Below, one piece after another: positions 21,401 to 24,400 of a DNA stretch of 64,000 nucleotides (position 1 is its first letter; the number at the start of each line of letters is the position of its first letter). The DNA is from Haliotis rufescens (Eukaryota), in contig NW_025963779.1 in the NCBI RefSeq assembly GCF_023055435.1, forward strand, positions 67,580,001 through 67,644,000, written 5' to 3'. Position numbers and translations under genes: made by a program. Below the pieces are notes generated by a model. That model saw nothing but the letters and a program-made list of their open reading frames with translations. It did no database searches and was not told where the DNA came from.

Positions 21401-24400
21401 TGAGGACATCCCATCATGCCCATTGCAGGTTACGTCAAAATGATCTTTGCGAACTTTGACCAAGCAATGCAATGACTAACAGGAAGTCAACAATAGCCAA
21501 TGGGAAAGCAGCTTTCTCCAACTTCACGGCACTAGTATCAAAATGTCGACCTCCATACTAGATTACGCTTTGAACAATACTTTGACAAAGTTCTCAATTC
21601 AAAATTTGAAAACTGAACAAAAGAATATTCTGGAATGTCTAATAGATGTCTGGAAGATTGTATGTACTTCCCACAGGCTGTGAAAAAATCTCTTCTGCTT
21701 CAAATGTTCATCCCACAGAAGCAAGCGACAGATGACGTTGAACATATGGCATGAGTCATACAACCTGAGCTTTCATTCAGAATACCATGTGTTAACCTTT
21801 CCATGGTTACATGATTAGAAAACACATTCAAACCTTCGTGATTTTGTAAGCAACGTTCTTATTGGTCTGATTAAAGGTTGTTCTGACTTGACCTGTAATG
21901 GGATGTCCTCAGATCTTTGAGTAGCAGTGATGTGCACTAAGATCTGATTTTAATGAGATTAGATGATAATACACAAAAGTTCAGACCCGCATATAACAGT
22001 CCTTGGGAATGGATTCATTAGTTTATGGGTACTTTTGCATTTGCCTGCAATCTCAAACCATCTGATTAAACATCATCTGGTCAATAGTAAGTCTGTCATG
22101 AATCTCTTACTAATTCACAAGAATGACCTTCAAAAAGACACACAGAAAAAATGTCACAACATATTTGGATTTGTGGGGAAAAAGTTCAAGATTCTTGTAA
22201 TGACCGCTTGCACACTGGTGGCAGTGATGATACTGGGAGGGTGAATCAGCGTTAGAAATTGGCACTAGTCCTGTAGTCCTTGCCAAACTGCCCAATAGTT
22301 AAGGTATCACAAGGACTAGTAGAAATTTGCCATTTTTAAGGGTTTTGCAAGATGTTATCATTATAAGGACTAGTGGACTAAAACTGTAAGTTTCTATTGC
22401 TGGTGAATATGTAACAAAGTTGTCACATGCTGGGAGGCAGCTTGCATAACATTCAGTTATCTAGTGATTATCATATATAACCCTGCTCCTTAACTCACCC
22501 AGGATGAGAGCCATGAGGCTGAAGACAACTCCCCCCGAGAGGACATGGTCCTCCGTGATGACTTCCCTCAGCTTGTGCATGGTGGTGATCTGGGCCATGT
22601 AGGGGTGATTCCAGGTGGAGCTGAGGAACAGCGCCCCCAGGGAGATGGCAGCCACGCCGTATAGAGCCGTCTTCTGTGGCTGTAGATGGTTTATGGACAC
22701 TGCCTCGATGTAGAAGTCAATCAGGAAGACGAACATGATGACCAGCAGAAGAGGAAACAACAGGTAGAGCCATGACTGTATGTCACTCTGGAAGTAGCAT
22801 ACAAACACTGATATACAACAGTAGAGCCATGACTGTATGTCACTCTGGAAGTAGCATACAAACACTGATATACAACAGTAGAGCCATGACTGTATGTCAC
22901 TCTGGAAGGAGCATATAAACACTGATATACAACAGTAGAGCCATGACTGTATGTCACTCTGGAAGTAGCATACAAACACTGATATACAACAGTAGAGTCA
23001 TGACTGTATGTCACTCTGGAAGGAGCATACAAACACTGATATACCACAGGTACAGCCACGATTGTGTCACTCTGGAAGAAGCATACAAACAGTGATATAC
23101 CACAGTAGAGCCATGACTGTATGCCATTCTGGAAAAAGCATAAAAACACTGATATACAACAATAGAGCCATGACTGTATATCACTCTGGAAGTAGCATAA
23201 AAACACTGATATACAACAAAAGAGCCATGACTGTATGTCACTCTGGAAGTAGCATACAAACACTGATATACCACAGTAGAGCCATGACTGTATGTCACTC
23301 TGGAAGGAGCATACAAACACTTACATACAACAGTAGAGCCATGACTGTATGTCATTCTGGAAGGAGCATACAAACACTGGAATACAACAGTAGAGCCATG
23401 ACTGTATGTCACTCGGGAAGGAGCATACAAACACTGATATGCAACAGTAGAGCCATGACTGTATGTCACTCTGGAAGTAGCATACAAACACTGATCTACC
23501 AATGTAGGGCCATGACTGTATGTCACTCTGGAAGTAGCATACAAACACTGATATTCAACAGTAGAGTCATGACTGTATGTCACTCTGGAAGGAGCATACA
23601 AACACTGATATACCACAGGTACAGCCACGATTGTGTCACTCTGGAAGAAGCATACAAACAGTGATATACCACAGTAGAGCCATGACTGTATGCCATTCTG
23701 GAAAAAGCATAAAAACACTAATATACAACAATAGAGCCATGACTGTTTGTCACTCTGGAAGTAGCATACAAACACTGATATACAACAATAGAGCCATGAC
23801 TGTATGTCATTCTGGAAGGAGCATACAAACACTGATCTACCACAGTAGAGCCATGACTGTATATCACTCTGGAAGTAGCATACAAACACTGATATACAAC
23901 AATAGAGCCATGACTGTATGTCACTCTGGAAGGAGCATACAAACACTGATATACAACAGTAGAGCCATGACTGTATGTCACTCTGGACGTAGCATACAAA
24001 CACTGATATACAACGGTAGAGCCATGACTGCATGTCACTCTGGGAGGAGCATACAAACACTAATATACAACAGTAGAGCCATGACTGTATGTCACTCTGG
24101 AAGAAGCATATAAACTCTGATATACAGCAGTAGAGCCATGACTGTATGTCACTCTGGAAGTAGCATACAAACACTGATATACAACAGTAGAGCCATGACC
24201 GTATGTCACTCTGGAAGGAGCATACAAACACTTATATACAACGGTAGAGCCATGACTGTTTGTCATTCTGGAAGGAGCATACACACACTGATATACAACA
24301 GTAGAGCCATGACTGTATGTCACTCTGGAAGTAGCATACAAACACTGATATACAACAATAGAGCCATGACTGTATGTCATTCTGGAAGGAGCATACAAAC

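Follow-up and report, generated by a model that had tools for sequence, protein, structure and literature searches.

Two boundary-spanning minisatellites fill intron 8 of a ZnT5-like gene in the abalone Haliotis rufescens

The ZnT5-like gene and its eighth intron

The DNA analysed here, referred to below as the window, is a stretch of 64,000 nucleotides from Haliotis rufescens (contig NW_025963779.1, positions 67,580,001 to 67,644,000). Its central feature is a ZnT5/SLC30A5-like gene of 16 coding exons and 786 aa, located on the minus strand between 15443 and 41293. The spliced exons translate without a single mismatch to the protein P0001 (XP_048255901.1), annotated by RefSeq as 'zinc transporter 5-like [Haliotis rufescens]'. 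The product displays the features of the ZnT5/SLC30A5 proteins of the CDF family, namely a C-terminal Cation_efflux domain (Pfam, residues 406-669), a His-rich loop and a long hydrophobic N-terminal extension, and its best database matches are ZnT5 proteins. The nearest solved structure is that of ZnT7, which spans residues 389-747 only, and the structure search returned none covering the N-terminal half. An AlphaFold model of P0001 built from 17 sequences was set aside (mean pLDDT 42).

Exon 8 (30217-30387, minus strand, 171 nt) ends in phase 0 with the donor GAG/GTGGGT, and exon 9 (22499-22787, minus strand, 289 nt) begins in phase 0 after the acceptor at 22788/22787. The intron that separates them, intron 8, is the longest of the 15 introns of the gene (7,429 nt, minus strand), and two minisatellites occupy 7391 of these 7429 nt (99.5%). 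Together they amount to about 140 tandemly arranged copies of the intron's own splice sites, 76 of the acceptor type and 65 of the donor type. When all 30 exon boundaries of the gene were compared with their flanking introns, these two recurred, with 70 and 26 matches, and the other 28 gave none. The duplication of boundaries in intron 8 is thus far beyond chance.

Other repeats and genes can be observed in the window. In intron 3, an array based on 16/17 bp (33350-33968 and 34141-34397) lies against the pyrimidine tract at the acceptor of exon 4 (33348) and does not copy the exon 4 boundary. A dispersed element of about 160 nt, possibly SINE-like, is found at 30441-30600, 33979-34132 and 17286-17441, with six shorter copies; the best copies are 93-95% identical. 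Two paralogous long open reading frames with F5/8 type C matches (49496-51349 and 59081-61003, plus strand, 618 and 641 aa) lie on either side of a very homogeneous array of 35 units of 70 bp (54672-57125, 98% matches). An open frame of 370 codons at 6827-7936 (plus strand) has no Pfam match. Exons of an AMP-binding, acyl-CoA synthetase-like gene are located at 180-3566 on the minus strand, with an intronic array of 11 units of 27 bp at 2007-2303. Finally, an array of six 100-bp units (47816-48412, 97% matches) was found without any link to an exon.

The acceptor array

The array at the 3' end of intron 8 (22757-27130, minus strand) consists of 76 units of 57 bp, each a copy of the exon 9 acceptor. 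An earlier note on this DNA, made from the sequence alone, had described a 57-nt repeat ahead of an exon 9 starting at 22787. Both statements hold; the duplication is real and extends well beyond the four to five copies reported there. The same note counted 24 nt of true exon in each unit. This is indeed the length of the exact match, and the exon-derived part is longer: the unit combines the last 27 nt of the intron with 30 of the first 31 nt of exon 9, one base being deleted. Decoy copies of the acceptor context from -27 to +24 are numerous (11 exact and 53 with at most 3 mismatches), and 64 of the 74 parsed segments end in AG. The matches among units amount to 91%, and the first unit, at the edge of the array, is truncated.

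The array also contains larger duplications. A higher-order block of 569 nt is duplicated with 95% identity. A segment of 227 nt is repeated 569 nt upstream with 4 differences, and this segment carries the fourth unit (22959-23015, minus strand), which has a TGA at 22998-23000 and shares this variant with the unit at 23584. The next unit (23016-23071, minus strand) is only 56 nt long and shifts the frame, and its duplicate is found at 23585-23640. These two 56-nt units, ending at 23071 and 23640, retain the exon base that is missing from the 57-nt units, which suggests that the original duplication was probably 58 nt long, hence out of frame. As a side observation, an in-frame AG is located 12 nt inside exon 9 (22775, minus strand) and at the corresponding place of each unit (22832, 22889 and 22946); splicing to it would remove or insert parts of units.

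Reading frame of the acceptor units

The three units closest to exon 9 (22788-22958, minus strand) are open in the frame of the exon. Splicing to their acceptors at 22844, 22901 or 22958 instead of 22787 would lengthen exon 9 from 289 to 346, 403 or 460 nt, and the in-frame extensions of 57, 114 and 171 nt announced by the earlier note are free of stops, as claimed. They were described as one to three copies of the same insert. This is not exact for the third, which differs in sequence and reads ...ISVFICSFQ. The acceptor at 23015 does bring in the in-frame TGA at 22998-23000, and none of the more distal AGs of the intron opens an in-frame extension: all the other acceptors of the intron would give a premature stop or a frameshift in exon 9 of 16.

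On this basis, a functional and possibly zinc-regulated ladder of isoforms can be imagined, in which one to three Cys-rich inserts of 19 aa are added to the transporter and the series is bounded by a selected stop. Each open insert adds three Cys to a zinc transporter. It would be placed at residue 249/250, with one hydrophobic segment on each side (about 226-245 and 254-272), and might be accommodated there by a loop. This proposal is nevertheless very improbable. Of the 76 units, 60 are open, 12 bear a stop and 4 shift the frame, and an opening run of at least three open units occurs with P = 0.48 when their order is shuffled (100,000 shuffles, mean run 3.5). The stop that had been presented as a cap is one of these 12, and a copied variant, since it belongs to the duplicated 227-nt segment. 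Among the 68 parsed 57-nt units, 51 distinct variants were classified as 38 missense, 7 synonymous and 6 stop, for a neutral expectation of 36.6, 10.0 and 4.4. The length of the opening run, the frequency of stops and the variant classes are all as expected under neutrality. Pooled over all units, the variant classes give no sign of purifying selection acting on the frame of the unit, the three proximal units being too few to be considered alone. The consensus unit is itself open in 2 of its 3 sense frames. The in-frame length of 57 nt and the TGA are probably accidents.

The protein data point in the same direction. The insertion point lies about 156 residues ahead of the Cation_efflux domain, and the translation of the 57-nt unit matches no Pfam family above the cut-off. 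An alignment of 17 mollusc proteins, comprising 16 of the 25 matches of the P0001 search and the H. rubra protein P0026, shows no insertion or deletion at the exon 8/9 junction in any of them, including the RefSeq models of H. rufescens and H. rubra. None of the three members of the P0001 cluster carries the insert. The peptide that had been proposed for proteomic detection is not tryptic, the unit containing neither K nor R; the tryptic junction peptide, deduced from P0001, is 40 residues long, or 59 with one insert. A variant of the same idea, in which the intron acts as a length-variable tuner of ZnT5, with regulated and allele-dependent use of the near decoys and decay of the products of the distant ones, is equally far from probable.

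Acceptor choice in sequencing contigs

Among 24 listed sequencing runs, four (X1, X4, X9 and X16) were aligned to positions 20800-22870, all as contigs. The aligned stretch includes intron 9 and stops short of exon 8 and the donor array, and it bears therefore on the acceptor only. The four runs carry four different organism labels and show 2-8 differences from the window in the exon 9 piece. No listed run is recorded as RNA, and the RNA nature of X1, X4 and X9 is a guess. Three raw-read runs, of miRNA-seq, were left aside. Contigs also drop rare isoforms, so that low-level forms would be hidden. Intron 9 contains several very high-copy dispersed repeats (21430-22410), found in all four runs.

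The contigs of X4 and X9 join exon 9 directly to exon 10. Those of X1 and X9 leave the genome at 22789, which corresponds to the start of exon 9 plus a 2-nt AG shared with the end of exon 8, and continue over 417 and 1149 nt outside the aligned stretch, in what we infer to be exon 8. In the bins next to 22789, the depth was 2.71 in X1 and 4.83 in X9, for 2.71 and 4.84 expected without intronic cover, and no cover was found on the repeat beyond these bins at the contig level. The acceptor at 22787 is thus the one used in the main contig of both runs.

The situation is different in X4. Here the main contig is interrupted at 22749, where a polymorphism is located, and further contigs cover 22790-22870 with a mean of about 11, compared with 19.7 on the exon. 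This cover on the repeat is the main result against silent decoys, and it raises the question of a functionless leak, in which 22844 and perhaps 22901 would be used constitutively in 5-30% of transcripts. The product would be in frame, would escape nonsense-mediated decay and would be a ZnT5 with 19 or 38 extra residues, tolerated or degraded. The decoy acceptors are identical in sequence and followed by an open frame, the use of near decoys has precedents in IFI6, CBS and ABCA7, and the choice of human 3' sites leans upstream, as detailed below. Simple models of this kind do not reproduce the X4 bins, however: the observed values are 21.4, 18.1 and 7.9, those of a contig made entirely of the +57 form would be 24.1, 24.7 and 7.9, and assuming a lone +57 branch does not improve the fit. 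An intronic background of about 3%, collapsed over some 20 identical k-mers, would fit the cover. The unbroken main contigs of X1 and X9, with zero cover on the repeat, and the three insert-free members of the P0001 cluster also argue against a leak of this size, which we regard as unlikely while giving it more weight than any other alternative. Use of the +57 form at a low level is compatible with the data.

The last run, X16, covers intron 9 as DNA would. Its contig ends at 22793, the position of the last unique 31-mer, and its cover on the unit is about 3.9-fold that of a single copy, which indicates that the array is present in the organism of X16 too. These two observations bear on a further possibility, that the arrays are an artefact of assembly. 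A single assembly was seen and the copy number could be mis-estimated, but the units differ from one another (91% and 85% matches in the two arrays) and are arranged in ordered higher-order blocks. With the X16 data added, an artefact is hardly credible.

The donor array and the junction between the arrays

The earlier note overlooked the second array, which extends from 27169 to 30221 on the minus strand and comprises about 65 units of 47 bp copying the exon 8 donor. The unit aligns across this donor, with about 25 diverged nt from the end of exon 8 and about 22 nt from the start of the intron. The context from -5 to +22 is found in 11 exact copies, the 9-mer of the true donor is present in 14 of the 65 units when the real site is counted, and the matches among units amount to 85%. 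The unit length is not a multiple of 3. Moreover, an in-frame TAG is located in the first unit, ahead of every decoy donor, and the use of any of them would therefore lead to a premature stop. As a separate observation, many units contain a pyrimidine tract and a CAG four bases before the GT, so that each resembles a mini-intron of 43 nt; a cryptic exon of 51 nt between neighboring units, translated in phase 0, would contain a stop.

The splice sites were scored with a matrix built on the other 14 introns of the gene, both true sites of intron 8 being held out. The true donor of exon 8 (5.4) is the lowest of 15 and the true acceptor of exon 9 (7.3) the second lowest of 15, the score of this acceptor being equalled or exceeded by 56 decoy AGs. 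A masking of the decoys by RNA structure is not supported: the predicted folding of 22700-23020 is not beyond that of shuffled sequences (z -1.04), and the inverted pairs of the region are limited to three short ones.

Between the two arrays lies a junction of 38 nt (27131-27168, minus strand) with an AG/GT whose GT is at 27148. It shares the register of the donor copies and is best interpreted as a last donor unit that has degenerated. The AG/GT was considered as a unique sequence, and this was rejected on its alignment with the donor copies and the end of exon 8. Its position exactly between the arrays could evoke recursive splicing, in which exon 8 would be joined first to the junction AG, regenerating a donor at 27148 and disposing of all the decoy donors. 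The donor 6-mer scores well, and none of the 42 AGGT sites in the other 14 introns of the gene reaches both scores of this site. On the other hand, an AG/GT at this place is expected by descent from the register with the donor copies. Its acceptor score is 3.0, whereas the 15 true acceptors reach 6.6-18.4 with this small matrix from the ZnT5 gene, so that the juxtaposed intronic AG/GT of a recursive site is present and the strong acceptor is lacking. Four minus-strand sites in the whole window pass the same thresholds, and many donor units hold acceptor-like sites that are equal or better. Recursive splicing is accordingly very unlikely here. It concerns the route and not the product, and is compatible with decoys that remain silent.

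Proposed explanation

The arrays of intron 8 are best explained as neutral 'mirage' minisatellites at both ends of the intron, with an outer pair of splice sites that is still used and decoys that are essentially silent. We give this reading a probability of about 0.7. Each exon-intron boundary would have been duplicated locally, and the arrays would then have grown by slippage and unequal crossing-over, with block duplications. Their tolerance would come from the outermost sites, which continue to prevail. The spliceosome probably keeps this outermost pair because it defines the shortest exons, as predicted by exon definition. The decoy acceptors indeed differ from the true one only downstream, where the exon is stretched to 346-460 nt or more and where another unit comes next. 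Premature stops located well upstream of several exon junctions are expected to trigger nonsense-mediated decay. Such a decay would remove the products of the distal acceptors and of the decoy donors, since all of them carry premature stops with at least 7 junctions downstream; the three proximal acceptors alone would escape it. The use of decoys would probably remain below about 5% of transcripts.

The silence of the acceptor side is less secure than that of the donor side. According to PMC9225289, cross-exon proximity is favored between long introns, and human competing 3' sites at least 20 nt apart show an overall preference for the upstream site, which exon definition only lessens. This upstream leaning, together with the use of the nearest pseudo-sites in IFI6, CBS and ABCA7, is the reason for the lower confidence. 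If the first unit was 58 nt long, the 57-nt form may have spread because an in-frame leak is tolerated.

The longer protein forms of the earlier note can therefore be drawn on paper, three in number, and are probably rare or absent. A functional ladder of Cys-rich isoforms, real or designed, is unsupported, given an open run that is what chance would give, variants that are not filtered, a junction at 22787 only in two of the three RNA-like runs and 17 proteins free of inserts. If a regulated in-frame use were true, intron 8 would represent a minisatellite that provides a zinc transporter with graded protein inserts.

Intron 8 provides a natural test case rather than a new system. With dozens of near-identical donors and acceptors in one intron, it can reveal the way in which the spliceosome of a mollusc selects the outer sites. 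In the literature covered, experimental work on acceptor-side arrays is scarcer than on donor-side ones. Such arrays also invite false isoform calls, which should serve as a warning for annotators.

Comparison with known systems

The arrays of intron 8 show the testable defining features of 'mirage' minisatellites. In both, the unit spans the exon-intron boundary, and the AG or GT signals are kept in many, not all, units. Concerted evolution is accompanied by degenerate units at the edges, namely the terminal donor unit and the truncated first acceptor unit. Mirages are described in the amphioxus genes for Adh3, troponin C, the globins BflGb6 and BflGb9, and PGBD5, where they leave splicing undisturbed (PMC3087553 and PMC3902484). 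Instability of the copy number between haplotypes or in the soma is another of their features, and the abalone data concern one haplotype. The abalone arrays share with them the tandem duplication of a boundary, the partial retention of AG and GT, the concerted evolution and the degenerate edges, as well as a unit length within the reported range of 10-160 bp. Regular splicing is probably preserved in the abalone gene, where two of the three RNA-like runs are clean at the contig level and X4 shows cover on the first repeat. They differ by their mollusc host and by their copy number, 76 and 65 compared with 3-6 in BflGb6. Moreover, the amphioxus globin mirages affect one boundary per gene, whereas the abalone intron is amplified at both of its ends, to the point of being 99.5% array. 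No mirage in an abalone or any other mollusc was found among the papers listed in the literature searches, which left out most subscription papers and do not imply absence from print; likewise, no two-sided array was found there, and one may still have been reported.

Human minisatellites provide precedents for both outcomes. According to PMC1557585, F7, LAMIN B2 and PDGF use no site other than the exon-proximal one. The 37-bp VNTR of F7 intron 7 resembles the abalone case in that its first unit spans the boundary and its pseudo-sites are identical, and the 47-bp donor array is its direct counterpart, the F7 donor also beginning with gugggu. The F7 repeat is restricted to the donor side with 5-9 copies, and offers no test for the acceptor array that the abalone intron also contains. 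Conversely, the nearest decoys are used in the minisatellites of IFI6 (6-16) and CBS, summarised in the same paper, and in the VNTR of ABCA7 intron 18 (PMC5954066). These repeats also span a boundary, and the use of their nearest one or two pseudo-sites provides a model for the ladder. Unlike the abalone acceptor array, they are located on the donor side, and the use of their decoys was shown by RT-PCR.

The intron gain reported for the potato RdRp gene (PMC4974935) is comparable on the acceptor side, where the duplicate likewise combines the end of an intron with the start of an exon and inherits the acceptor signals. In potato, activation of a cryptic donor gave rise to a new intron, whereas the abalone ZnT5 alignment shows no new exon. 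The repeat type itself has thus already been described in lancelets and humans, and the unusual point of the abalone gene is the amplification at both ends of one intron.
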